A stretch of DNA of 34,638 nucleotides from a virus (IMGVR_UViG_2778260991_000004:1-34638), one strand, 5' to 3'. Shown: positions 1,177-20,538, numbered from the stretch's first letter. Translations and numbers: made by a program. The notes: generated by a model from the letters alone, not told the origin.

Positions 1177-1799
1177 TTTTGAATCACCGTTGTTGCATAG
1201 GAATAAATAAAAGGGAGTTTTACATATTTCTGGTCAATGGCATCTTTAAGAAAATAGCCTATGCCATCGCCATACTCTGGTATCTGAATAGAAAAAACAC
1301 TGTCCGATACAGTCACACTCACATCAAAAGTATGCTGCAATGGCGGGTCTATTCCGTTTTTCCCATGAATGAACCGTGCCACACGGCGCTTTAACCAGTC
1401 AATGCAGAAATGCGAACCGTCAGCCTTATAAAAATTCCAAGTTAATATTCGCTTGAAATAATCATCCGGAACATACGATGCCTGCCCCGGAACATAATTC
1501 CGCATTGCCGCATAAGGGATTGTATTGTATTCAATGGTATCGTATGCGCCGCGTGCAATAGCCTCCTCGGAAACCTGTAGTAAAGGCCTTTCAACGCCAT
1601 AAATCCCGAGTGCAATCCAGTCCAGCAACTGCCCGGTTATTGATTCCGATGTCCAGCATGGCAATGCCAGATTGTTGAGTGAGTCGAGGTATTCCTGAGC
1701 AATTTCATTGTATGCATCAAAGAACGCAACAACATTCGGATCATCTCTGTACTGCACAAATGGATAAGCAGGGAGAATTTTCTCAGTCAGATATTGCAT
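1173..1799 (-). CDS. baseplate/tail-fiber-associated protein (P2 gpI-like position)
   Basis: ORF 1173..1907. The track start at 1907 is TTG; in-frame ATGs at 1856 and 1799. 1799 gives a 17-nt overlap with baseplate J. Start uncertain. Function inferred from position only. Confidence 0.45.
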   Translation of the reverse strand: MQYLTEKILPAYPFVQYRDDPNVVAFFDAYNEIAQEYLDSLNNLALPCWTSESITGQLLDWIALGIYGVERPLLQVSEEAIARGAYDTIEYNTIPYAAMRNYVPGQASYVPDDYFKRILTWNFYKADGSHFCIDWLKRRVARFIHGKNGIDPPLQHTFDVSVTVSDSVFSIQIPEYGDGIGYFLKDAIDQKYVKLPFIYSYATTVIQK

Positions 1800-3009
1800 A
1801 CTTGTTGACCTGAACCTGTGATGCCACCGTTGAAAAATAGGAATAGGTATCGCCATAAACCAGGCTTGTGTCTTTCGCCGGAAGAACAATATGGCCGTTA
1901 ATACCAATGCTCACACTGATTGTTGAGATCAACGTCGCATCAACCAGCAACCTGACGGAACTGGTAAAAATATCCTGGATACGCAGAAGATTTATCGGGT
2001 GTCCGACTTCAATTGAATTGATGTAATCAGCAACGTTTTGCTGCACAGCCATAGCAATACCCGCCGGATCAACATAATCATCAGACACCGTGTTCCAGGT
2101 GATTAGCACCATGACGTTTTGTGATGACGGGATAACGAACGGCACCTGATAAACGTCCGGCGAAACGGTTATTGAAACCGTGCGTTTTTCCACTGCCGCA
2201 CCGGATGGATTGCTTACATCGTTGGTCAGTTTCGAAATATCCGGTACAGATTTGTAAATCGCATAAGCCACATCATACGGATCACCGCCACCAACAACCG
2301 CAACCCATTTCCCCAGCGACGACTGCCGAAAAGAAATCAGGTTTTCTCGCACACCGTTTACTGATTTGAGCATCGCTTTAAAGCAATCCGGTGTTCCCTG
2401 CACACCAAACATGCCGGACTCCATGACTTCGGCGCGGTAAGATGCCCACGTTTGCGCCTCCTGACCTGGCATCCCTGCGGTAAGGTTCGTGCATTTTACA
2501 GGCTGGTCTTTTGGTACTGATGTAATGACCTGCGTCACGGTCCCTTCCGGTACAGCCCATGAGCCTGACGTTGTGGCCACACAGTAAACTGGCTCAGTCT
2601 GCCCGCTTTCCGGTATCACAGTATCGCGGGAAACCGCATACTGGTAGTTACCGTCACCAACCACAAATCCTTTAGGGATACCAAACCCCGGCAACGCCTC
2701 AAACACCACGTATACCGCCGTATTTGTACTTAATCCCTTCTGTGCTCCATATATGTTTCCGAGTTGCATCAGTAACGGAATATTCGCGCCGTATGGGCTT
2801 ACAGAGTTAATAAGGTCCACCCGCGCCTGGTCTATTAATGCCAGCGCCCCTACTGCCGTGCTGGCAAGGTCTGTAATAAGTCCTGCCGGAAGGTTGGCTG
2901 TATATCCAGGTACTTTTTCAGCAACTCTGGTGATAAGATTCGCGAGCAAATCATTGGGTGGCGTAGGCTGCGCACCCGCACTGGTCATAGTAATTGGTAT
3001 TTCTGACAT
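1783..3009 (-). CDS. baseplate J-like assembly protein
   Basis: 408-aa ORF; size and position (after spike/baseplate genes, before the gpI-like gene and tail fiber) fit the baseplate J family; composition typical of a structural protein. Confidence 0.6.
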   Translation of the reverse strand: MSEIPITMTSAGAQPTPPNDLLANLITRVAEKVPGYTANLPAGLITDLASTAVGALALIDQARVDLINSVSPYGANIPLLMQLGNIYGAQKGLSTNTAVYVVFEALPGFGIPKGFVVGDGNYQYAVSRDTVIPESGQTEPVYCVATTSGSWAVPEGTVTQVITSVPKDQPVKCTNLTAGMPGQEAQTWASYRAEVMESGMFGVQGTPDCFKAMLKSVNGVRENLISFRQSSLGKWVAVVGGGDPYDVAYAIYKSVPDISKLTNDVSNPSGAAVEKRTVSITVSPDVYQVPFVIPSSQNVMVLITWNTVSDDYVDPAGIAMAVQQNVADYINSIEVGHPINLLRIQDIFTSSVRLLVDATLISTISVSIGINGHIVLPAKDTSLVYGDTYSYFSTVASQVQVNKYAISD

Positions 3010-3051
3010 ATATCCCCTATATAAAAACCGCCGAAGCGGTTTTAAGTTAAC

Positions 3052-3798
3052 TTATTTTGCCTGTTTCATTTTTTCCACCCTCTCAAGCATTCTTTTTACA
3101 TTTGATGGAGGATAGTTAAATTCATCGCCGTCTCCAAAAGAAATTTTTATAGGCTTCATTTTCATAACCAACTCTTTCAGAACTGCTTTACCAATTTCAG
3201 TTTTTGGCACTATAAAACCATTTCCATACAAGCATGATTTATAAGTTTTATAATATTCACCATTAATCAAAATTGGTGGATATTCTAATGGGCCATCAAT
3301 TTGCACTGAATTATCGCAAAATCCATTACCTTTAGATTTTGAAGCAATAAAAATAGCTATTGTTCCATCATCGCCATACATCAGGAATCTATTTTTACTA
3401 ACACCTTCCAATGGAGGTAATATTATCAGCGCACCATCAATATACCATTCAGCGTAATTCTCTGATTCATTGATTATGTTCTCATTAATTTCATTTAAAG
3501 ATGAATATTCCCTGAATGCATTAGAATACCATTGTCGAACACATGATTCTGTTTTGCACTTCTCTCTTTCATTCCACAAGTCTGAAACAATTTTTCTAAA
3601 AGCTTTCTTATCAGTGCTCTCTAACTTTACTTTTTGATATAAAGAATTTAATTTATCATCAAGTTCAGATAATTCACTGTTGTTGCAAATTAACTTTTCA
3701 GAATATGATTTAGCTTTCGAGCAATCAAAAGATACTGCATTCGCAGTTCCTATTTGTAATAAAAAGGTAAACACTACAAATAATTTTAACTTAGACAT
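3052..3798 (-). CDS. secreted LprI-like (DUF1311-type lysozyme-inhibitor domain) protein; moron
   Basis: ATG at 3798 preceded by AAGGAG; N-terminal signal peptide MSKLKLFVVFTFLLQIGTANA; Cys pattern C-x11-C ... C-x4-C resembling the LprI/DUF1311 N-domain; clearly AT-rich relative to flanking tail genes. Confidence 0.55.
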   Translation of the reverse strand: MSKLKLFVVFTFLLQIGTANAVSFDCSKAKSYSEKLICNNSELSELDDKLNSLYQKVKLESTDKKAFRKIVSDLWNEREKCKTESCVRQWYSNAFREYSSLNEINENIINESENYAEWYIDGALIILPPLEGVSKNRFLMYGDDGTIAIFIASKSKGNGFCDNSVQIDGPLEYPPILINGEYYKTYKSCLYGNGFIVPKTEIGKAVLKELVMKMKPIKISFGDGDEFNYPPSNVKRMLERVEKMKQAK

Positions 3799-4135
3799 CC
3801 TTAATCTCCTTATAAAACAGGAGAACAAATTTTACCCATTCTTAATGTCTGTTCAAGTTCATACTTTACAACCGCGCCCAGTTGAGTATGATTGGACGCA
3901 TGAGGCGTCGAAACCTCCCCCAAAAGCTGATTACCCAGCACCCTACAATGTGTTGGTTTTTTTATGCCTTTTTTTTGTGATGGCAATATGTGCGATCACA
4001 ACCCCGATCAATGTCGGGAGGGCGACGAATACAACACCCGAAAGGGGAATAAGTCCGCGGTATCTTTTGGGCCGTTTCGAACCTCCCGGCGCCACTACGT
4101 TAGTGGCAATTCGAAAAAAGCCAAAAGAGGTTACT

Positions 4136-4696
4136 ATGACCACCCAACTCATCACCGTGTTCAACGGAACCATTTCGAACGAAACCATCCTTCTATGCAA
4201 CGCTCGCGATCTGCATGCCTTTCTCGAAGTAGGTAAACGCTTTGCCACTTGGATTACCGAACGAATCAGCGAGTATGAATTCGTAGAAAATCAGGACTTT
4301 TTGATTATTTCCCAAAATCGGGAAAAAATCGGTAGAGGCAGACCAGCCAAAGACTACCATCTCACCCTGGACACCGCCAAAGAGCTGGCTATGGTCGAAC
4401 GCAACGAAAAAGGACGCCAGATCCGCCGATACTTCATCGAGTGCGAGAAGAAGCTGCGCGAAGATACCACCAGCACACAATCCCCTCTGAATGTTGACAT
4501 CATCATGCGCGTCAGAAACGGCTCGGTTACCCACATTGAGCACCACAAATCAGGCTCAGTTATAACCACAGAATGGGCAATTCACTTACTACGCAAAAGT
4601 GGATGGATTGTCATGCCACGCGATGAACTTCTTAACACGCCACTGGCCCAATTGATACCCGAAAACTTGCCTCAAACCGGAACCTGCGTCCGGTAA
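4136..4696 (+). CDS. phage antirepressor-like regulator (Ant/Rha-type)
   Basis: ATG at 4136 preceded by AAAGAGG; 186 aa; the motif DYHLTLDTAKELAMVERNEKGRQIRRYFIECEKKL resembles antirepressor DNA-binding domains; one of only two plus-strand genes, divergent from the LprI-like gene. Confidence 0.55.
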   Translation: MTTQLITVFNGTISNETILLCNARDLHAFLEVGKRFATWITERISEYEFVENQDFLIISQNREKIGRGRPAKDYHLTLDTAKELAMVERNEKGRQIRRYFIECEKKLREDTTSTQSPLNVDIIMRVRNGSVTHIEHHKSGSVITTEWAIHLLRKSGWIVMPRDELLNTPLAQLIPENLPQTGTCVR

Positions 4697-5019
4697 CTGG
4701 TTCCGTTAAAAAACACAACATCGATGTTATAGGTGGGGTTCTCTGCCCCATCTACTTTTGAAATTGCCAGCGATGCAAAATACCCGGCATACTGTTGCTG
4801 AACCATGTTCACATAGTAGTCCGGGTAAATCTGCTGCACGATGCACTGCTGCGCTGGAATGCCGTAATTCGCGTAAAACGGCGACTCCCCCAACCCCAGC
4901 TTTAACGTCTGAATGAGCGTCGTCAGCCAGCCGTAGGAGAAATCACCGTTGGCGTCTGACTCTACCGCCACCCATTTTTTGTTGCCGTTCGCGTCGGTGA
5001 CGCGGCCCCATGTTCTCAT
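4672..5019 (-). CDS. hypothetical protein (115 aa)
   Basis: ORF 4672..5052; preferred start is ATG at 5019 preceded by GAGGG, which overlaps the stop of the upstream small ORF. No recognisable motif. Confidence 0.4.
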   Translation of the reverse strand: MRTWGRVTDANGNKKWVAVESDANGDFSYGWLTTLIQTLKLGLGESPFYANYGIPAQQCIVQQIYPDYYVNMVQQQYAGYFASLAISKVDGAENPTYNIDVVFFNGTSYRTQVPV

Positions 5020-5026
5020 CGTGCCC

Positions 5027-5173
5027 TCACCACCATCGGATCTGGCCAACAAAATACCCAGACGCCAGAATCAGAAAGACCAACCAGATAAGTAAAAACT
5101 TCCAATTGGGAAATTTCTCGCCCATAACTCGAATCTCAACTAGTAATTTATAAACAATGAAAAGAAACTTCAT
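5027..5173 (-). CDS. small hydrophobic peptide (48 aa), paralog of 5292..5390
   Basis: Hand-translated: MKFLFIVYKLLVEIRVMGEKFPNWKFLLIWLVFLILASGYFVGQIRWW; AAGGGA RBS; shares the core MGExxPNWKFLLIWxVF...QIRW with the 5292..5390 product; below the 60-aa track cutoff. Confidence 0.4.
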   Translation of the reverse strand: MKFLFIVYKLLVEIRVMGEKFPNWKFLLIWLVFLILASGYFVGQIRWW

Positions 5174-5291
5174 ACAAATCCCTTTGTAACAATTACTTAT
5201 ACCAAGTCATTCTATGCTTGAGTTCACGTAGCAAATCATCCATGAAGTAATTTGTTGTTTTTTCATTGCTATATGTAAAGTTATGTAAAAA

Positions 5292-5390
5292 TTACCGCCA
5301 CCGGATCGCCTGAATCAAAGCGGATAGTCCAAATAAGAAAAACACACGCCATATCAACAGGAATTTCCAGTTGGGTAATCTTTCGCCCAT
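5292..5390 (-). CDS. small hydrophobic peptide (32 aa)
   Basis: Internal ATG of track ORF 5292..5498 with consensus AAGGAG 9 nt upstream; product MGERLPNWKFLLIWRVFFLFGLSALIQAIRWR; paralog of the 5027..5173 peptide. Confidence 0.4.
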   Translation of the reverse strand: MGERLPNWKFLLIWRVFFLFGLSALIQAIRWR

Positions 5391-5407
5391 TTCTCGTAAC
5401 TCCTTTA

Positions 5408-5572
5408 TCAGTTTTTCAGGTAAATCAATGTACCCGCCACTAATGCAGTACAAATGATCCAGGCAACAGGCGTAAGTACGTGACGAATCCCTCGGCATAC
5501 CGCGATTATCCTCGCAGCCTTATCTGCTCCTTGCGGAGTTGTCTCAGCCTTAAGAATCAGTTCGCTATCCAT
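5408..5572 (-). CDS. small predicted membrane protein (54 aa)
   Basis: Hand-translated: MDSELILKAETTPQGADKAARIIAVCRGIRHVLTPVAWIICTALVAGTLIYLKN; one hydrophobic helix; ATG overlaps the stop of the upstream small ORF; its stop lies just upstream of the AAGGAG of the next gene. Confidence 0.35.
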   Translation of the reverse strand: MDSELILKAETTPQGADKAARIIAVCRGIRHVLTPVAWIICTALVAGTLIYLKN

Positions 5573-5732
5573 TTAGAACCTTTATGATCTCTGCGATTCC
5601 CGGAAGAGATTTAGCAACAGCAAACCCTCCGATAACTATAAGAACTGCATAAAACATTCTTCTCAGAACCGGACTTCTTTCGAGCAATTTTAGAGCTTCC
5701 ACAATCCAGTCTCCTCCGCTAAAATTAATCAC
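5565..5732 (-). CDS. small predicted membrane protein (55 aa, GTG start)
   Basis: GTG at 5732 with GGAGG 7 nt upstream; product ...RRMFYAVLIVIGGFAVAKSLPGIAEIIKVLNG with one hydrophobic helix; the alternative ATG start would give 30 aa. Confidence 0.3.
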   Translation of the reverse strand: MINFSGGDWIVEALKLLERSPVLRRMFYAVLIVIGGFAVAKSLPGIAEIIKVLNG

Positions 5733-5787
5733 GGAAGACCTCCAAACATACGTAATTATCCCTTGCCTTATTCAAGGTCAGAAACAG

Positions 5788-5826
5788 AAAACCCCGACTG
5801 GGCCAACAGTCGGGGTTTTCGTTTTA
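5788..5826. terminator. bidirectional intrinsic terminator
   Basis: Perfect 9-bp GC-rich stem CCCCGACTG / CAGTCGGGG with a 6-nt loop, flanked by an A-run on one side and TTTTCGTTTT on the other; sits 30 nt downstream of the spike gene. Confidence 0.5.
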
Positions 5827-5857
5827 TGGGTAGTATTTAAAGTGAAATGAACCGGTA

Positions 5858-6571
5858 TTAACCCGGATTTGGTTTCTTCGACGTGATCGTACTGCCACCG
5901 CTTTGAACACCAGTCACATCGTGACTGTGGCTGCTGGCGCTCACGCCGTTGATAACTGCATCTTTCTCGACCTTAAGAGGACCAATCAGCGAAGCGGTTG
6001 TATCCTTCATCTGGGCTTTGTCCTGGACGATCGGTCCGTTGAGGTGAATTTGACCGTTCATGAAGATATCTTCGGCCTCGAGGTAAACAGCTTTCGACTT
6101 TAGCCTGATTTCTTCCGGTGCCACCGTTACCGAGCTACTGCCGTCCTCTGTTTTGATGATCGCGCCATCCGGACCGTACAAAACGATTTTTTGCGGATCT
6201 TCGTCGGACCAGTCCTTGTTTGCCAGTGGCACGAAAAACAGGGGAGTGAGCGACATCGAGTAAGAGAGCGTCGCCATACCGGTTCCCAATCCGGACACAC
6301 CGCGCAGGGATACATCAGCGGCAATTGTTACTCCTCGATCACCCGGCTGTATCGGGTAACGGATATACGGGAATGTGGCGACAGGGATTGTTATCTGCGG
6401 AAAGTTGATCCCCTCTGGCAACATATCAAACTGAACGGTCACTATCTGCCCACTGACATCGACAACATGGCAGGGCAATTCACGGCCTTTAAGCTCGGCT
6501 TGCTGGTTGCCAGAACTGGTCATCATCTCCGACAGCGTTCGGAGAAACGGTAATTTTTGAGCGTTTGACAT
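5858..6571 (-). CDS. baseplate central spike protein (gpV-like)
   Basis: 237 aa; Gly/Val-rich C-terminal region with an SSHSHDV HxH motif near the C-terminus, as in metal-binding spike tips; lies inside the baseplate cluster. Confidence 0.5.
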   Translation of the reverse strand: MSNAQKLPFLRTLSEMMTSSGNQQAELKGRELPCHVVDVSGQIVTVQFDMLPEGINFPQITIPVATFPYIRYPIQPGDRGVTIAADVSLRGVSGLGTGMATLSYSMSLTPLFFVPLANKDWSDEDPQKIVLYGPDGAIIKTEDGSSSVTVAPEEIRLKSKAVYLEAEDIFMNGQIHLNGPIVQDKAQMKDTTASLIGPLKVEKDAVINGVSASSHSHDVTGVQSGGSTITSKKPNPG

Positions 6572-7578
6572 TACACCCTCGCCCAGTTCTCAGCATATGC
6601 CTCAAATACCGTCACCCAGGCATCGCCATCAGCTGTCAGATACGAACCAATGTGTCTGACCGATTTCACAAGAAATTTCCCGGTGAACGTGGTCGAATTT
6701 TTTGCGATAACGCTGGGTGCCGTTGTATTAGCCATCACAATCGACGCAGCGCCAGAATATAGCCCCTCCGGCAGTTTAACCACATCACCACATCTGATAT
6801 CGCCTCTCATAGGACATTTGAAACTGACGGTAAACGGCGCTATCCATGTCGGCTGCCCGACCAGTTCATGGGCATGAATTGTTTTTGGCTCCCCCCACTT
6901 TGCTGACGCGTTATCGTAAATTCGTATTCTGTCGGAAAGAATACTGATGGCAATCCCGCTGTATTTCTCATCGCGCATCATTGCAATTGAAGCACTACGG
7001 AGGACCATAGCCAGCGAACCAATATCTTCGTAGGTTCCATTCCACGGTTCCGGCAAAACGAGGCTGTCGCTGACAGTACAATCGATCAACTTATTCGGAA
7101 ATGCCTTTTGCAACGCACGGAAGATTACATCACCAACCTTTTCCCCTTTAAGCCCCTCCCCCTCGATAGAGAACGGTTTACCATCATCTGTTTTGCGTAC
7201 GGTTGGATTTATTACCAGGTTTAAGGTCTGGTTCGTGCCGATCCAGTTGGCATAGGCCAGATAAATTTCGCCATAAATAACCTCACCCTGTTGCTGTGGA
7301 TTTGCCAAAGGCAATCCCTCAACAAAGCCCGCTTTCATACGGACCAGACACCCCTGCAAACTCACGCTTTGCTTCAGCATGTCGATAGGCAAACCGTATA
7401 TTGTGAGCATCGTTCCTGAATTCACTACATCAAGACCCGCTACCTCCACGTCAAATTCAACATGTAGCCCACACCCGGGGGTTTTACTGGTATCAAAAGG
7501 CCCGATAGGTTTACCGTTGCAATCCACTGGCGGCTTGCCTGTTTTAGGATTAATAATTTCCAGTCGGTAATAACGCAT
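6571..7578 (-). CDS. baseplate structural protein (possible hub)
   Basis: 335-aa ORF between the small tail protein and the spike gene; tightly coupled to both neighbours; function from position only. Confidence 0.4.
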   Translation of the reverse strand: MRYYRLEIINPKTGKPPVDCNGKPIGPFDTSKTPGCGLHVEFDVEVAGLDVVNSGTMLTIYGLPIDMLKQSVSLQGCLVRMKAGFVEGLPLANPQQQGEVIYGEIYLAYANWIGTNQTLNLVINPTVRKTDDGKPFSIEGEGLKGEKVGDVIFRALQKAFPNKLIDCTVSDSLVLPEPWNGTYEDIGSLAMVLRSASIAMMRDEKYSGIAISILSDRIRIYDNASAKWGEPKTIHAHELVGQPTWIAPFTVSFKCPMRGDIRCGDVVKLPEGLYSGAASIVMANTTAPSVIAKNSTTFTGKFLVKSVRHIGSYLTADGDAWVTVFEAYAENWARV

Positions 7579-8512: not shown

Positions 8513-10591
8513 TTACCCCGGTATTTGTTGCATTCCGGCGAGTTGTGCCAGTATATCTGAACCTGGTTTTTGTTGAACTTCGAGCCTGATTACCTGAGAA
8601 GCATTATTTGGTGAATATACGTTCCCCCGGTTCATTGCCAGCGCCCGCATCACATCATCGCCACTTACAGCACGAGCGGCGGCCCCATTTTCATGGTTAA
8701 TAATGCCCTGAATTAGCTTTCTCATTAGCTCAAAATTAGAACCATCGATTTTCTCCTTAACACCTAATCCAGTGTACTGAGAGAGATAGCTTTTATAGGA
8801 CGATGTGTTATTTCCATCAGATGAAGGGGCATAAATATCAATAATCTGATCAATCGTATTTTTGCCTCGTTTCAGGTATAGCATGACCTGCCGATCTAAG
8901 GCGGCGATACCTTCCAGCATCGTCGGGAAGCTGGCAAAACGGGCATTTGGCCCTGATTCCAGAGTAGCCCCTTTTTGTCCTGCGAAATTAAGGTTTCCGG
9001 GATTGTTATTCCTGATCCCTCTGGATAAATATGTTGATCTGTTTACATTGTTCGAATATTTCTGCAATCCTCCAGGCCAGACCTTGCCAGGATTGTTTTT
9101 TTGCCACTCCTGCACTTCATTAAAATATTCAAAATTAAAACGGCCTTCCAGCCCTTTCATTTCCTCACTGGTGGTAGGTGTGTTATTCGTAGGAATAGCC
9201 AATCCTGCTACTGTTCCAGCTGTAGCCCCTAGAAGGCTTCCGCCTACAACACGGGCGGCAACTCCGGTTGTTGTAGCTGCCACAGCACCAACTCTTGATG
9301 GCCCGGCAAGCACTGCGGCCCCAAAAAGCCAGGGATGTTCAACCGCAAAGCCAACAAATCCGCCAAGAGCTTTGGTGACCTTTGCAACGTTTTCGGCAAA
9401 ATTGTTCAGGTCGTTATTAAAATCCGGGCCATTAACGTACTTACCAAGTTTATCCAGCCCCGTTTCTACATCTGTCAGAATCCTTTTAAAGTTCTCACCG
9501 TTCATGAAATTCAGGGCAGCATTCGTGGTTCCATTAGAAATTCTGATTAAAGCGTCTGCATTCCCGGCCAGCGCTCCCTGAAATCCGCTGGTAAGCCGGT
9601 CCCAGTTATTTTCTAAGTTACTGGTAAGATTCTGATACTGACTTGTATGTCCAGATGTGAGCAACGAATCATTTTGTGCTGCACGCAACGAAAACTCTTT
9701 ATTGAGTTCAGGTATTTTGTCCTGATATTTGACTAACTGGTTAGCAAGACCAAAATTTACCCATCCAAGGCCACGGCCTCTGAGCATGCTCTGAGTAAGT
9801 CCGGATCCTTCATATTCCTTTGCAAGAGCAGCGACTCTTTCTAACAACACAGGGAGATTTTCTGCTGCCCCTTTTTTAGGATTTATCCCTAACCCAATTA
9901 GCCCGTTGTAGGCAGGATGCTGAGTGTCATTCTGCGCGGCTGCCAGTGTATTGAGCAAATTACCAACACCGGAAAAATAAGACGAATATGTGCTTTCTGC
10001 CGCCTTTAACTCTCCTGGCGTTGCAATCAATTCATCTGCATTTTTCTGTTTCTCTACAACATTACGAGCCATCATGCCAAAGCCAAACGGCCCGGCAACG
10101 CCCATAACCGCAAGTTTTGTCCCCCACGATACGGTGGTTTTAAACAGGTTGTTTAATCTCGAAGTGGTCGTCTGTAGCGTAGAATTGATCTGCTTGTAAG
10201 TTTTCAGCGTCTGCTGGGCATTTTTCCCCAGCCCACTGAGATACTTATCAAACATCGTTTCGCCGCGACCTTTATAGTTGCTAACGAACGAATCCGCTGT
10301 TTTCCCGCTGCCAACAAAGCGCCCTTTTTCATCCCTTAAACGCCCATCAGTGGACGCAGTCGGAACTGGCGCAGGTGAAGATGGTTTCCTGGGGGCCTGA
10401 TTGGCTTCTCCGCCTGTGGTTGTCTGCCGGGTACCACCTCCCTGACCTGTATTTGAAGGTATTTTAAGCGGTGTCCCGGCAGGGCCAATCATCAGCCCGT
10501 TGCGATATTTTTCAAATACCGCCTCGAGTCGTTTGAGTTGTTCCTCATTAATGTCCAGCGTAAGAACTGGCATCTGGTTACCAGCCATCAC
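8513..10591 (-). CDS. tail tape measure protein
   Basis: 692-aa ORF directly after the frameshifted chaperone pair; Gly/Ala/Thr-rich hydrophobic central segment; position between tube/chaperone and baseplate genes. Confidence 0.55.
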   Translation of the reverse strand: MMAGNQMPVLTLDINEEQLKRLEAVFEKYRNGLMIGPAGTPLKIPSNTGQGGGTRQTTTGGEANQAPRKPSSPAPVPTASTDGRLRDEKGRFVGSGKTADSFVSNYKGRGETMFDKYLSGLGKNAQQTLKTYKQINSTLQTTTSRLNNLFKTTVSWGTKLAVMGVAGPFGFGMMARNVVEKQKNADELIATPGELKAAESTYSSYFSGVGNLLNTLAAAQNDTQHPAYNGLIGLGINPKKGAAENLPVLLERVAALAKEYEGSGLTQSMLRGRGLGWVNFGLANQLVKYQDKIPELNKEFSLRAAQNDSLLTSGHTSQYQNLTSNLENNWDRLTSGFQGALAGNADALIRISNGTTNAALNFMNGENFKRILTDVETGLDKLGKYVNGPDFNNDLNNFAENVAKVTKALGGFVGFAVEHPWLFGAAVLAGPSRVGAVAATTTGVAARVVGGSLLGATAGTVAGLAIPTNNTPTTSEEMKGLEGRFNFEYFNEVQEWQKNNPGKVWPGGLQKYSNNVNRSTYLSRGIRNNNPGNLNFAGQKGATLESGPNARFASFPTMLEGIAALDRQVMLYLKRGKNTIDQIIDIYAPSSDGNNTSSYKSYLSQYTGLGVKEKIDGSNFELMRKLIQGIINHENGAAARAVSGDDVMRALAMNRGNVYSPNNASQVIRLEVQQKPGSDILAQLAGMQQIPG

Positions 10592-18340: not shown

Positions 18341-19154
18341 GTTTGCCCTTCTCCGTTAAAAATTCGTCGGGTAGTTTCTGAGGGACGTAGATCGGCAGTG
18401 CATCGCAACTGCAATAAACCTCCTCCCCGGCAGCAGTGATTTCGTCATAAAAACCATATACGGGCTTAATCAGCCCCTGCTCCAGCGCCCACGAATTGCG
18501 GAGGAGATAAATTTTCTCGTCGCGCTCTTTGTGGTCCTGTCGGTATTTGTAGCCCGGACGCCGCCAGTTAGAATGCCAGCGCAGAGCAATCGCACCACTC
18601 TGAACAGCCAGCAGATACTTAACGTTGCTCGCCAGCTTATGTCCCTGGTCAATTGCCACCCGGCGACTGATAAAATCCATATCCTTCACGGACTTCTGAA
18701 AACCGGACTTCACTTCCCGGCGATCAATTTCGCTCACCCCGTCAGGCGGAATGGACGTAACCCATCCCTGAAAACGCTGTATGGTTTTCTCGATAGCCTG
18801 TTCGCGGTTGAGTTTTATCAGGTTGGCACTGGCGAAAATTCGCCTGTCGAGTTCCTTACGAAACTCAGGTTTCAGTTTTTCAACAGTGATTTTTTTAGGG
18901 CCCTCAGGAGGCTGATCCCGTAATGCCCCGCCGTCGATAACAAGACGGCTGTAGATAGCGGTGAGATGTTTTCTGGCTACGGTATCATCAGGGGTTTCTC
19001 GCTGAGCGGCTACACGGAGTTTCCGGCACCATTCGAGCAATGATTTTTCGCTATCCCACCCGTGATTTACGTAGTAGTTAACGGCATCCGTCAGAACCTC
19101 ATACAGCGTCCTGATCCGTTTCTTCTTCCTCACCGCCCGGCTGGAAATTGCCAT
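18321..19154 (-). CDS. head morphogenesis / minor head protein
   Basis: ORF 18321..19292; preferred ATG at 19154 with GGAG upstream, overlapping the portal 3' end; basic, Arg/Lys-rich; sits after the portal gene. Confidence 0.4.
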   Translation of the reverse strand: MAISSRAVRKKKRIRTLYEVLTDAVNYYVNHGWDSEKSLLEWCRKLRVAAQRETPDDTVARKHLTAIYSRLVIDGGALRDQPPEGPKKITVEKLKPEFRKELDRRIFASANLIKLNREQAIEKTIQRFQGWVTSIPPDGVSEIDRREVKSGFQKSVKDMDFISRRVAIDQGHKLASNVKYLLAVQSGAIALRWHSNWRRPGYKYRQDHKERDEKIYLLRNSWALEQGLIKPVYGFYDEITAAGEEVYCSCDALPIYVPQKLPDEFLTEKGKREFNRA

Positions 19155-20538
19155 CAGGCGTCTCCTGCTTCGGTGGTTCATAATTCGCCAGCGCGTCCAC
19201 ATCAATGATGAGTGGAGCTTCGCCATAGGTTTGCGTGGCATTAACAAGGCTTGCCAGCCATTCAGTGACGGCGGCACGGTTTTCAGGATCAACCTGTGGC
19301 GACACGGCAGAGAAAAGTGCTATCGCCTGTTGAATCACTTTACTGTCGCTTTCCCGGCGTTTGTCCGGCGACTCCTCCACCAGCTCCTGCCACGTCGCGG
19401 TAAACTCGCGCCGCCACTGGTAAAACGTGGTTTTATAGTCCTCGGTTATGATGTCCGGGTAATCATTTTTCAGCGACTGATAAAATTCCTCGTTCCAGGC
19501 GATGTACTGCACCAGGCGTTCGAAATAATCCATCACAGGTTCAATCTGCTGGCGTACACCATCGATATACTGGCTGATGGCTTTCGAGTCCTCCTTACCT
19601 TCACCGAATCCGTTACTGAATGCTTCTTCCTTGATAATAATGGCCGGAACGTCACTCCCGGCGGCAATATCAGCAATGATATTGTCGCGGGCAGTATTCA
19701 GCGCCCCGTCGATGTTTTGCAGGTTCAGTGAACTTACGTCTTCGTCTTTTCCAATACTCAACACGCCTTTATTTTTGGCGGCTTTCACGTTTTCCCTTTT
19801 ACGCCCCGTGGCAGCAGCCATGATCCCGTCCATTTTCGAACCGTTCTGCACAACTTTAGCTACCAGTACGCCCGCTTTCTGACTAACGAGATCATTCGCC
19901 TCCATCGTGTTGATATAGGATTTCAGGGAATAAAGAACGCGCTGAAACACACTTCGTCCGGTGAATCCGAACGATGAACTCTGAAACTCCAGATAAATCG
20001 GTGTGCCGTTGAAGATTTTCAGTGTGCGTGACGGATGCCAGTCTTTTCCGCCAATCTTCAGCCTTTTGTTGGCTTCCTGGAAAAACGGACTGTTTGGGTT
20101 CTGGTCAGTCACCATCGAACCGGAAGCGTTCAACGGATCCCACGCGTTGATATACACATCCTCTTCTGTCAGCCCGAATGTCGGAAGCGGCTCACGACAT
20201 GAAACACTGTCGGTGCCCACGCCGATCGCTGCAGCACCGTAGCAACGAGACAGAAAAAACAGATTTTTTATCTTCTCGTTGACCCTCATACGTTCCCATA
20301 CCTCCTGGAAACGCCGCACAACCCTCTCGTCAGGATCTGTCTCCACGTTATACTGTCGCGGCTTACACATCGCCATCAGTATGGGTTTTTCGACAAGTTT
20401 TCCGCCCAGAGGATGGAATTGCCACAGCAGCTTACACAATTCATAGCCAATATCGGTTCCCGGCTGAATTTCTTCAGCCTCAAGAATACGCATCAGTGCT
20501 GAACCGAGGCCGCCAGTAATCTCGATCTCTGCCATCAA
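19099..20538 (-). CDS. portal protein
   Basis: 479-aa ORF directly downstream of the large terminase gene; acidic C-terminal tail; size and position typical of portal proteins. Confidence 0.6.
   Translation of the reverse strand: MMAEIEITGGLGSALMRILEAEEIQPGTDIGYELCKLLWQFHPLGGKLVEKPILMAMCKPRQYNVETDPDERVVRRFQEVWERMRVNEKIKNLFFLSRCYGAAAIGVGTDSVSCREPLPTFGLTEEDVYINAWDPLNASGSMVTDQNPNSPFFQEANKRLKIGGKDWHPSRTLKIFNGTPIYLEFQSSSFGFTGRSVFQRVLYSLKSYINTMEANDLVSQKAGVLVAKVVQNGSKMDGIMAAATGRKRENVKAAKNKGVLSIGKDEDVSSLNLQNIDGALNTARDNIIADIAAGSDVPAIIIKEEAFSNGFGEGKEDSKAISQYIDGVRQQIEPVMDYFERLVQYIAWNEEFYQSLKNDYPDIITEDYKTTFYQWRREFTATWQELVEESPDKRRESDSKVIQQAIALFSAVSPQVDPENRAAVTEWLASLVNATQTYGEAPLIIDVDALANYEPPKQETPDGNFQPGGEEEETDQDAV

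Follow-up and report, generated by a model that had tools for sequence, protein, structure and literature searches.

A candidate two-site antisense RNA of the sRNA-Xcc1 family beside a secreted-protein moron in the baseplate gene cluster of an Escherichia coli prophage

What is the function of the DNA between two divergent accessory genes that interrupt the baseplate genes of a phage? This question is raised by a stretch of viral DNA of 34,638 nucleotides (IMGVR_UViG_2778260991_000004:1-34638; referred to here as the window), in which a minus-strand gene for a secreted protein and a plus-strand antirepressor gene (ant) are placed between the gene for baseplate J (1783-3009) and the phrog_7986, spike and hub genes. 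An earlier note on this DNA had correctly placed both genes within the baseplate block. It also took them for a single island and suggested that two copies of TCGAA(A)CCTCCC in the roughly 340-bp intergenic region form the site of a regulator. The intergenic region (3799-4135) is 337 bp long and does contain both copies, but nearly all of its part from 3865 to 4135 belongs to a regulatory RNA module of ant that is centred on a small RNA (sRNA) of the family sRNA-Xcc1. A moron and an antirepressor are as such ordinary, and both had already been named by the annotation pipeline PGAP; the value of the locus lies in its intergenic region. We consider it likely that the locus joins an operon of the immI type, formed by sRNA-Xcc1 and ant, to an independent moron, whose product may be an exclusion or hydrolase-neutralising protein.

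A small RNA with two recognition elements upstream of ant

The product of ant is, by its profile matches, an AntA-family antirepressor, as the earlier note had proposed for the divergent plus-strand gene. Pfam AntA (PF08346, E 2e-28) matches residues 22-90 with 99.1 bits (gathering score 27), and the anti-repressor families of PHROG match with E-values from 1e-53 to 1e-68. The RNA encoded upstream matches the Rfam model of sRNA-Xcc1 over its full length (Table 1) and consists of a 9-bp closing stem, a GAAA-capped hairpin 1, a hairpin 2, a single-stranded junction and an NCCAC tail. The Rfam consensus has two parts without base pairs, namely the hairpin 2 loop and a junction of 6 nt that leads from hairpin 2 into the closing stem. 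These parts hold the recognition elements of the RNA in the window, b' (the loop, 4063-4070) and a' (the junction, 4075-4081). Eight such regions upstream of ant share, in alignment, a conserved module with the order promoter, 5' hairpin, intrinsic terminator, hairpin, sRNA, small 3' hairpin, Shine-Dalgarno sequence and ATG. The 5' hairpin of the leader is formed by GAGG (3902-3905) and CCUC (3914-3917) and carries in its loop a decoy of the distal target (a1, 3908-3913); the second decoy (b1) follows at 3919-3926, and the hairpin of the intrinsic terminator (3935-3956) is followed by U7.

Each recognition element can pair on both sides of the sRNA. Downstream, the loop (U4063-G4070) pairs with C4121-A4128 (b2) over 8 bp, on the Shine-Dalgarno GAGG (4127-4130) that b2 overlaps ahead of the ant ATG at 4136, and the junction (U4075-A4081) pairs over 7 bp with U4110-A4116 (a2), the distal site in the 5' untranslated region (UTR) of ant. 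Upstream, C4064-G4071 pairs over 8 bp with the leader copy C3919-G3926 (b1), and U4075-A4080 pairs over 6 bp with the leader copy U3908-A3913 (a1).

These complementarities covary across the family. Loci with the sRNA core were gathered from viral contigs (111 unique phage loci with 82 distinct loops), and an independent set was taken from bacterial genomes (100 loci with 86 distinct loops). The longest run complementary to the locus's own flank was compared with the runs to the flanks of other loci in 10,000 permutations, a design that is conservative as to relatedness. A cruder own-versus-cross test of duplex energy was only moderately discriminating, because GC-rich segments pair generically, and the loop-specific test was used instead. 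For the phage loci, the loop has an average run of 7.42 nt in its own downstream 100 nt versus 6.05 nt in others, and of 7.14 versus 6.20 nt in the upstream 125 nt; the junction has 6.52 versus 5.75 nt downstream and 6.64 versus 5.80 nt upstream. The loops of the bacterial loci behave alike downstream (7.13 versus 5.84 nt), and in all five comparisons the count was 0 of 10,000 permutations. In the phage loci, a median of 8 nt separates the end of the downstream loop target from the start codon, so that this target lies on the Shine-Dalgarno sequence. In 63 of 79 loci the junction target comes first and the loop target second (a2, then b2), and in 59 of 81 leaders the upstream loop target is followed by a T-run. 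For instance, loop and target read CUUGUA and UACAAG in Rac-SA53, CCUCACUGA and UCAGUGAGG in TUM9812, UCUUUUUGC and GCAAAAAGA in STEC383, and CUUCUUAUUUGG and CAAAUAAGGAG in locus L096.

The same anatomy accounts for the repeated motif. Copy 1 (TCGAAACCTCCC, 3908-3919) corresponds to the region of the predicted decoy a1 in the leader 5' hairpin, and copy 2 (TCGAACCTCCC, 4078-4088) to the 3' end of the predicted sRNA junction together with the 3' strand of the closing stem. Because the junction core TTCGAA is palindromic, junction and target resemble a direct repeat, which explains why the motif had been noticed. The CCTCC next to TTCGAA is specific to this lineage. The divergent region might instead be read as a pair of promoters in which the motif copies are operators of a DNA-binding regulator that controls both genes as one island; both copies are indeed present, and each strand has promoter-like hexamers, the minus strand at 3856-3829 and the plus strand at 3865-3892. 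However, the ant promoter is 190 nt upstream of copy 2, which falls within an RNA scored by Rfam and forms the 3' strand of its closing stem, and copy 1 is itself downstream of the predicted transcription start. Moreover, the repeat is within chance (one exact match found versus 0.58 expected), a direct repeat of at least 8 nt occurs in 1 of 111 related loci and was rejected as a family-wide feature for its absence from the other 110, and the two genes differ in their evolutionary distribution. We regard operators at these sites as very improbable, and the copies as parts of the RNA module.

Two further candidates in this region were discarded: a LexA box (CTGT-N8-ACAG) at the ant promoter, which is only a poor match and is not conserved in TUM9812, and a weak Esr41 match on the leader (16.6 bits versus 102), which is not meaningful. 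The NCCA-like tail after the closing stem forms the 5' half of the small, conserved hairpin at 4091-4107, which is not followed by a U-run; this hairpin and its equivalents elsewhere may be a 3'-end processing or stabilising element.

Relatives of the RNA and a proposed mechanism

Members of the sRNA-Xcc1 family have been met before as discrete transcripts. The Xanthomonas RNA is an 88-nt species on Northern blots (PMC2996969), and in EDL933 one copy gives an abundant RNA of 89 nt that has little ribosome coverage (PMC5331693); the published coordinate of the latter did not map onto the assembly examined. In the literature the family figures as a trans-acting sRNA that is borne by integrons, controlled by HrpG/HrpX and possibly related to virulence, with predicted targets on the chromosome (PMC2996969; PMC12189769). 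It has also been placed upstream of symE in Xanthomonas integron cassettes, with no mechanism offered (bioRxiv 2025.06.18.660453), and upstream of an ORF6N gene in APSE phages. The searchable literature, which does not include Chen et al. (2011), shows no link of sRNA-Xcc1 to C4 or to control of the ribosome-binding site of an adjacent gene, and Rfam assigns the family no clan. The RNA in the window is a full-length member of this X. campestris family above the gathering score. It is tied to an adjacent ribosome-binding site and to its own leader, unlike the trans-acting sRNA that the literature sees in Xanthomonas.

The link to antirepressors recurs widely. In Rac-SA53, three other E. coli prophages and two Shiga toxin (Stx) phages, sRNA-Xcc1 is found about 37 nt upstream of every ant start codon, the two Stx phages having two ant genes and two sRNA copies each. 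It also precedes a Bro-N antirepressor gene in a relative from a metagenome, with only 67% identity in baseplate J. Pfam matches among 70 downstream open reading frames (ORFs) of the phage loci were P22_AR_C (17), Bro-N (15), P22_AR_N (9), Rha (9), KilA-N (8), AntA (6) and ORF6N (5). Among 54 downstream ORFs from bacterial genomes they were Bro-N (14), Rha (9) and the SymE toxin (5), with fewer P22_AR, ORF6N, AntA and KilA-N, and the pairing of loop and ribosome-binding site was found in all four SymE loci checked individually. The Stx phages (Stx2a phage F451, record L006, 1142-3355; L007) have, near their integrase end, a tandem array of two or three antirepressor genes or pseudogenes; two members of the array have their own sRNA-Xcc1 copies with differing loops, which suggests several independent specificity channels per phage.

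The ant module resembles immI of phages P1 and P7 part by part: promoter, two upstream targets, a terminator-like hairpin, a three-way-junction RNA of about 80 nt, two downstream targets and the antirepressor. The annotated P1 record gives the order P2c4 and P1c4, a1 (TTGACAG), b1 (GTTAGTGC), a terminator-like hairpin with a T-run, and c4; the 77-nt c4 is followed by a2, by b2 on the icd ribosome-binding site, by icd and by ant1/2. RNase P processing and Rho-dependent polarity are features of C4 action, and C4 of P1 reportedly acts both in cis and in trans. Repression of ant by C4 is documented (PMC8198154, which cites Citron and Schuster 1990). The C4 family (RF01695) has the topology of sRNA-Xcc1, with a closing stem, hairpin 1, a hairpin 2 loop, a junction of 6-7 nt and a CCA-like tail, and both models are 87 nt long; the C4 consensus in Rfam has a hairpin 2 with a 12-nt loop, a 7-nt junction and a CCACC tail. 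The two families are also alike in that the loop recognises the site near the ribosome-binding site and the junction the distal one, with the targets in the order a, then b. Conversely, hairpin 1 in the window is longer and capped by GAAA, whereas that of C4 is capped by UUCG, and the closing stem has 9 bp instead of about 17. The ant module in the window also lacks an icd-like leader ORF, unlike P1 and P7, and the RNA would therefore target the ant ribosome-binding site directly.

Other phages offer comparable arrangements. N15 is the phage after which AntA/AntB were named, and an Rfam scan finds an isrK-type leader and then a C4 RNA ahead of its ant operon. N15 (icd-antA-antB) and the CI RNA of P4 (seqA/seqB/seqC) have in common with the window a small structured RNA with complementary sites on both sides in one transcript, and N15 shares with it the AntA-family antirepressor downstream of such an RNA. 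The RNA of N15 is a genuine C4-family member, whereas that of the window is sRNA-Xcc1. The N15 and P4 CI RNAs work by premature termination. In the Gifsy-1 locus IsrK/orf45/anrP, the read-through transcript is translationally inactive through pairing of leader and downstream sequences, and the short RNA acts in trans (PMC4825925). The window has a comparable terminated leader upstream of an antirepressor gene; the short RNA of Gifsy-1, however, activates instead of repressing, and the leader in the window has no isrK match. The isrK model ('Hfq binding RNA', Salmonella) was found to match the a1b1 leader and terminator before C4, with 62 bits in N15 (record L137, 4415-4490) and a sub-threshold 35 bits in P1 (record L130, 18231-18312). 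Rfam keeps isrK outside the C4 clan; on these matches, it looks like a leader RNA of immI-type operons.

The favoured mechanism for the ant module (Module A, about 3865-4696, plus strand) is as follows. Transcripts from the promoter at 3865-3892 would mostly stop at the leader terminator, and those that read through would carry the sRNA and ant. The 86-nt sRNA would probably be released as a stable species, like the family members of Xanthomonas and EDL933; the NCCAC tail after the closing stem and the discrete 88-89-nt RNAs of other species are an indirect hint of such processing. Its b' and a' would pair with b2 and a2 and block ant translation, in cis or, once processed, in trans. The prophage would thus keep its own antirepressor silent, and also that of an incoming phage with the same loop, so that the loop sequence would be the specificity determinant. 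The a1 and b1 copies would pair with the same elements and probably serve attenuation (termination) or titration of the sRNA when promoter activity rises. This logic would be that of C4-icd-ant in P1 and P7 and of the C4-type RNA with antA/antB in N15, carried out by a different RNA family. Hairpin 2 in the window is identical to that of the ant copies of Stx2a phages, and cross-silencing between the prophage and Stx phages is therefore predicted.

A narrower explanation would make sRNA-Xcc1 only a cis-acting element of the 5'UTR, an attenuator or a switch that senses a ligand, temperature or ribosomes, and not an immunity RNA that acts in trans. The sRNA is co-oriented with ant at a distance of 37 nt and is therefore probably co-transcribed with it, the leader has an intrinsic terminator, and alternative intramolecular structures have been shown experimentally for the related isrK locus of Gifsy-1 (PMC4825925). 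Yet members of the family accumulate as separate species of 88-89 nt (PMC2996969; PMC5331693), the recognition elements are presented, as in C4, by a loop and a single-stranded junction within a fold that is stably closed, and more than 80 loop specificities are what selection for heteroimmunity would produce. Action in cis and action in trans are also compatible with each other. We therefore think it unlikely that the RNA acts in cis only, and prefer the two-site mechanism with both modes of action.

Some results weigh against this mechanism. Complementary runs are shorter than 7 nt in about a quarter of the phage loci. The minimum-free-energy fold of the single sequence gives the closing stem but not the inner hairpins of the consensus, so the structure claimed for the RNA rests on the covariance model. 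The models for C4 (RF01695), c4-a1b1 (RF03163) and isrK have no match in the window from 3850 to 4160 at E-values up to 10, whereas C4 scores 68.8 bits in P1 and 78.8 bits in N15 (C4 and c4-a1b1 form part of clan CL00128). Homology of the RNA with C4 is thus not established, since the C4 models do not match. The module has two covarying recognition elements, target copies in the leader and a co-oriented downstream antirepressor, and by analogy we class it as immI-like in function, yet outside the C4 family. Lastly, in ten Xanthomonadaceae loci (L141, L150, L154, L166, L167, L185, L198, L206, L212 and L236), loop and junction covary perfectly with two upstream leader sites that are followed by a strong terminator, and the downstream ORF (89-255 aa) has no complementary site where ribosomes bind. 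Because of these loci, occlusion of the ribosome-binding site is not universal for sRNA-Xcc1, and attenuation at the leader terminator could be the main mode of control. The Xanthomonadaceae copies may work through the leader only, and the leader interaction may be the more universal feature, with occlusion as an addition.

The secreted-protein gene and the variable slot

Do the two genes belong together, as the idea of a single island implies? BLAST breakpoints against related prophages place the left edge of variable DNA exactly at the baseplate J start codon (3009/3010) in all relatives. The right edge differs between relatives (3814, 3863 or 3901) and coincides with, or shortly precedes, the promoter and transcription start of ant. 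The homology of ETEC4067 with the window, for instance, begins at 3863. Between these edges the relatives carry unrelated contents: rac62 and rac61 in Rac-SA53, genes for 163 and 227 aa in STEC383 (the latter not homologous to the secreted-protein gene in the same position) and a gene for 179 aa in ETEC4067. The alternative slot genes of these three have no Pfam or PADLOC match. The secreted-protein gene itself was found in 12 complete genomes, with a divergent (partial) version in two more, among 5426 E. coli genomes of which 89 have the baseplate J gene with an identity of at least 95%. By contrast, ant is kept in Rac-SA53 and in all 30 of the E. coli records listed, phage pPE4 having the sole 5'-truncated copy, and from 3902 on, ant and about 235 bp upstream are 78% identical to ant regions of Stx phages.

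Comparison with relatives therefore gives boundaries for the secreted-protein gene (3010 on the left; 3814, 3863 or 3901 on the right) but leaves ant outside the insert, and the notion of one island is given up. As these comparisons suggest, the secreted-protein gene and the ant module are two independent accessory modules, back to back in a cargo hotspot, and the ant module is a separate unit, mosaic yet stable in the lineage. A further insertion point is seen at the 3' flank of ant, where TUM9812 (record L003, 4331-5321) and record L135 (1140-2098) have a gene for a YafO-family toxin and a partner of about 190 aa; YafO, in TUM9812, was the only Pfam match among the alternative cargo genes.

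That the secreted-protein gene was inserted cargo had been supposed before, and the variable slot, the patchy distribution and the name given by PGAP ('lysozyme inhibitor LprI family protein', WP_001774840.1) agree with this. It can be called a moron in a hotspot because the slot is variable, with unrelated contents, sharp breakpoints and patchy presence. The gene also has its own (weak) promoter-like site, a terminator and a deviant composition, and is present or absent among collinear relatives. Its AT-richness, stated in the earlier note, is evident from a GC content of 0.30-0.32 over 3000-3900 versus 0.45-0.53 in the flanks (31% for the gene versus about 49%). The minus-strand ORF spans 3052-3828, and the start is most likely the ATG at 3798, behind a strong AAGGAG at 3811-3806.

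The protein has two domains. Its N-terminus (MSKLKLFVVFTFLLQIGTANA, followed by VS) reads as a typical Sec signal peptide of residues 1-21, in keeping with the export proposed earlier, and the end of this peptide (TANA/VSFDC) lacks the lipobox L-x-x-C. An N-domain (residues 22-105) is helical and distantly LprI/DUF1311-like, with four cysteines (C26, C38, C81 and C86) that are invariant or nearly so among relatives, and is modelled confidently by AlphaFold (predicted local distance difference test above 90); the C-domain (residues 112-248) is rare and beta-rich. The word-indexed protein search recovered only the query's own cluster, and relatives were collected by an exhaustive HMMER search. 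This gave 3476 relatives of the N-domain (residues 1-105), joined to many different C-terminal regions, including a Mrr-type nuclease, a trypsin-like peptidase and DUF4431; 102 phage records have the domain, among them those of lytic, T4-like RB49-group phages. For the C-domain, only two relatives are among the top HMMER matches listed. In relatives that are about 67% identical in baseplate J, the slot bounded by baseplate J and the 115-aa gene is filled by C-domain-only homologues with their own signal peptides, one of them next to a divergent sRNA-Xcc1/Bro-N ant module. One full-length homologue is found in a Mu-like tail cluster, after a DNA-circulation gene.

Searches for function gave little. 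PADLOC has no match for the secreted protein, for Ant or for seven alternative cargo proteins of the slot. NCBIfam returned only a far-sub-threshold 'A1S_1983 colistin' match (23 bits versus 150), searches of PDB sequences with the single protein and with its profile found no match, and Foldseek with the full model against PDB gave nothing below E 0.3. The conserved cysteines of the LprI/DUF1311 pattern that the earlier note recognised are real, but the profile match does not uphold the LprI fold deduced from them. The Pfam LprI (PF07007) match over residues 26-66 (profile 1-47 of 106) has 16 bits versus a gathering score of 22 (E 0.016), and only 5 of 35 relatives match LprI at all (best E 1.3e-3). 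The LprI/DUF1311 family and the immunity proteins against peptidoglycan hydrolases of the type VI secretion system, such as TsiV3 (PDB 4NSR), are nevertheless counted among the closest known systems.

One proposal is that the protein genuinely inhibits host (C-type) lysozyme in the manner of LprI and, as a lysogenic-conversion factor, protects the bacterium in animals. It is consistent with the PGAP name, with the weak Pfam match over the first cysteine-containing pair of helices, with a periplasmic, disulfide-bonded protein as predicted here, and with host strains from livestock and human guts. However, the match is under the Pfam threshold, the searches of PDB sequences and profiles gave no match, and there is no lipobox (the LprI of M. 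tuberculosis is a lipoprotein). In addition, the N-domain is joined to many unrelated C-domains and occurs in strictly lytic T4-like phages, which speaks for a generic module and not for a dedicated lysozyme inhibitor, and C-domain-only homologues fill the same slot without it. Inhibition of host lysozyme is in our view improbable, though it is the chief alternative to the role preferred below. A role in the lytic cycle or the virion, as a periplasmic lysis regulator or as an envelope factor in tail assembly or release, would fit a gene that is co-oriented with the late baseplate operon and whose homologues recur in the tail or baseplate clusters of two myophage lineages; but the gene is AT-rich and framed by a promoter-like site and a terminator of its own, and since most members of the lineage have unrelated genes in its place, it is dispensable for virion production. 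We hold such a role to be slightly less probable still.

We prefer, tentatively and with low confidence, to see the protein as a periplasmic factor of the lysogen for superinfection exclusion or for neutralising peptidoglycan hydrolases; by analogy it may be likened to the envelope superinfection-exclusion proteins P1 Sim (simABC), HK97 gp15 and T4 Spackle. The gp15 gene of HK97 is a moron inside the tail genes, and Spackle of T4 is a periplasmic inhibitor of the tail lysozyme. In P1, simC ('superimmunity', with a signal-peptide-like N-terminus) is divergent from c4-icd-ant and adjoins tail genes, which is the placement of the secreted-protein gene in the window, with no similarity in sequence. 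Module B (3019-3856, minus strand) would then be a classic moron, and its product, a disulfide-rich periplasmic protein of two domains that is exported by Sec, would correspond in position to P1 Sim. The absence of PADLOC matches, the sub-threshold LprI score and a similarity to P1 SimC limited to the signal peptide count against this part of our interpretation, as does the assignment of the function from location and analogy; no structural match to Spackle is found among the matches listed.

Prophage setting and significance

From 2900 to 4800 the window matches the E. coli STEC711 chromosome at 100% identity, and phage Rac-SA53 matches 78% of its first 9 kb at about 95% identity. The STEC711 element occupies the Rac site, flanked by ompN/uspF and kilR/recE, and is a complete-looking, lambdoid-regulated prophage with a baseplate module of the contractile-tail (myovirus) type; the prophage repressor region falls beyond the window. 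On the minus strand, the tail genes are ordered SLT-domain protein, phrog_7750, phrog_8737, hub, spike-like protein, phrog_7986, baseplate J and more tail genes (Table 1).

Table 1. Features of the two modules and their surroundings (positions in the window)
Feature	Position	Strand	Basis or remark
Baseplate J gene	1783-3009	-	Pfam Baseplate_J, E 4.5e-8, and phrog_6; left conserved border of slot
Predicted intrinsic terminator of moron, AAAACCGC-UUCG-GCGGUUUU and U-rich tail	3043-3019	-	Read from sequence; -9.2 kcal/mol, z -3.5
AT-rich moron gene, 248-aa secreted two-domain protein	3052-3798	-	ORF, GC, profile searches, AlphaFold
Promoter-like site of moron, TTGAAC-16-TAAAAT	3856-3829	-	Consensus match only, 9/12; not above shuffle expectation
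Promoter-like site of ant module, TTTACA-16-TATGAT	3865-3892	+	10/12 consensus; position conserved in eight-region alignment
Leader RNA	3899-3965	+	5' hairpin, decoys a1/b1, intrinsic terminator
Conserved hairpin between leader terminator and sRNA	3977-3999	+	Eight-region alignment
sRNA-Xcc1 (Rfam RF02221)	4013-4098	+	72.5 bits (gathering 53), E 1e-12 to 1e-13, model 1-87 of 87
Small hairpin of sRNA 3' tail, GCCACU-ACGUU-AGUGGC	4091-4107	+	Fold; analogous hairpin in many loci
Target sites in ant 5'UTR	4110-4130	+	a2 UUCGAAA 4110-4116; b2 CCAAAAGA 4121-4128; inverted repeat and pairings
AntA antirepressor gene, 186 aa	4136-4696	+	Pfam PF08346, E 2.2e-28; phrog_14211, phrog_377 'anti-repressor'
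115-aa tail-cluster gene (phrog_7986), conserved	4672-5019	-	Right border; overlaps ant 3' end by 25 bp
Spike-like gene	5858-6571	-	
Hub gene	6571-7578	-	
SLT-domain tail protein	8513-10591	-	

A second variable slot extends from the phrog_7986 gene to the spike gene (5020-5857), and Rac-SA53 lacks 5138-5760 of it. It holds three small ORFs (5027-5173, 5292-5498 and 5565-5732), hydrophobic and partly repeated (PNWKFLLIW occurs twice), for which Pfam and NCBIfam gave no match, and a strong bidirectional terminator hairpin at 5787-5820; a weak Rfam match to 'sar' (5786-5840) was dismissed as merely this hairpin.

Other cargo is found farther along the prophage. The early region has a hok/sok type I toxin-antitoxin locus, composed of an Rfam match to the sok antitoxin RNA (30520-30695, minus strand; 113 bits versus 59) and an adjoining Hok/Gef gene named by PGAP. 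At about 26775-27993 (minus strand; STEC711 2699866-2701084), PGAP names a 'scabin-related ADP-ribosyltransferase' and then a 'subtilase family AB5 toxin binding subunit'; the pair lies between the late-regulator region and the holin genes, which is the position of Stx in Stx phages, and may be AB5-type toxin cargo. By the terminase, at about 19099-20535 (minus strand; STEC711 2692190-2693626), a 478-aa protein is named 'anti-CBASS protein Acb1 family protein' by PGAP, and may, by its position, simply be a portal or head protein.

A wider proposition can be built on the two modules, with a chance that we would put somewhat short of even. In it, sRNA-Xcc1 would be not a virulence sRNA of Xanthomonas but a widespread, programmable, two-site antisense immunity RNA, a third class beside C4 and P4 CI, with which mobile elements silence genes of toxic or anti-immune function, namely those for antirepressors (AntA, Bro-N, KilA-N, Rha, P22_AR and ORF6N) and SymE toxins. 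Its loop of 7-10 nt would set heteroimmunity groups, and the copy in the window would cross-silence the antirepressor of Stx phages, whether incoming or co-resident, and so influence the induction of Shiga-toxin phages. The secreted protein would be an envelope exclusion factor, completing an 'immunity corner' in the style of sim and immI beside the baseplate genes.

The locus offers a testable mechanism and a cognate target for sRNA-Xcc1, hitherto a virulence-linked trans-acting sRNA whose mode of action was unknown, and ties the family by its architecture to the classic antisense control of antirepressors by C4. If the RNA acts in trans, its loop sequence would predict which prophages are mutually immune at the level of the antirepressor, including Stx-converting phages that share the loop. 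By the same reasoning, the sRNA-Xcc1/symE integron cassettes would be pairs of the toxin-antitoxin kind, and the recognition loop, which is short and modular, could serve as a tool once directed to other targets.

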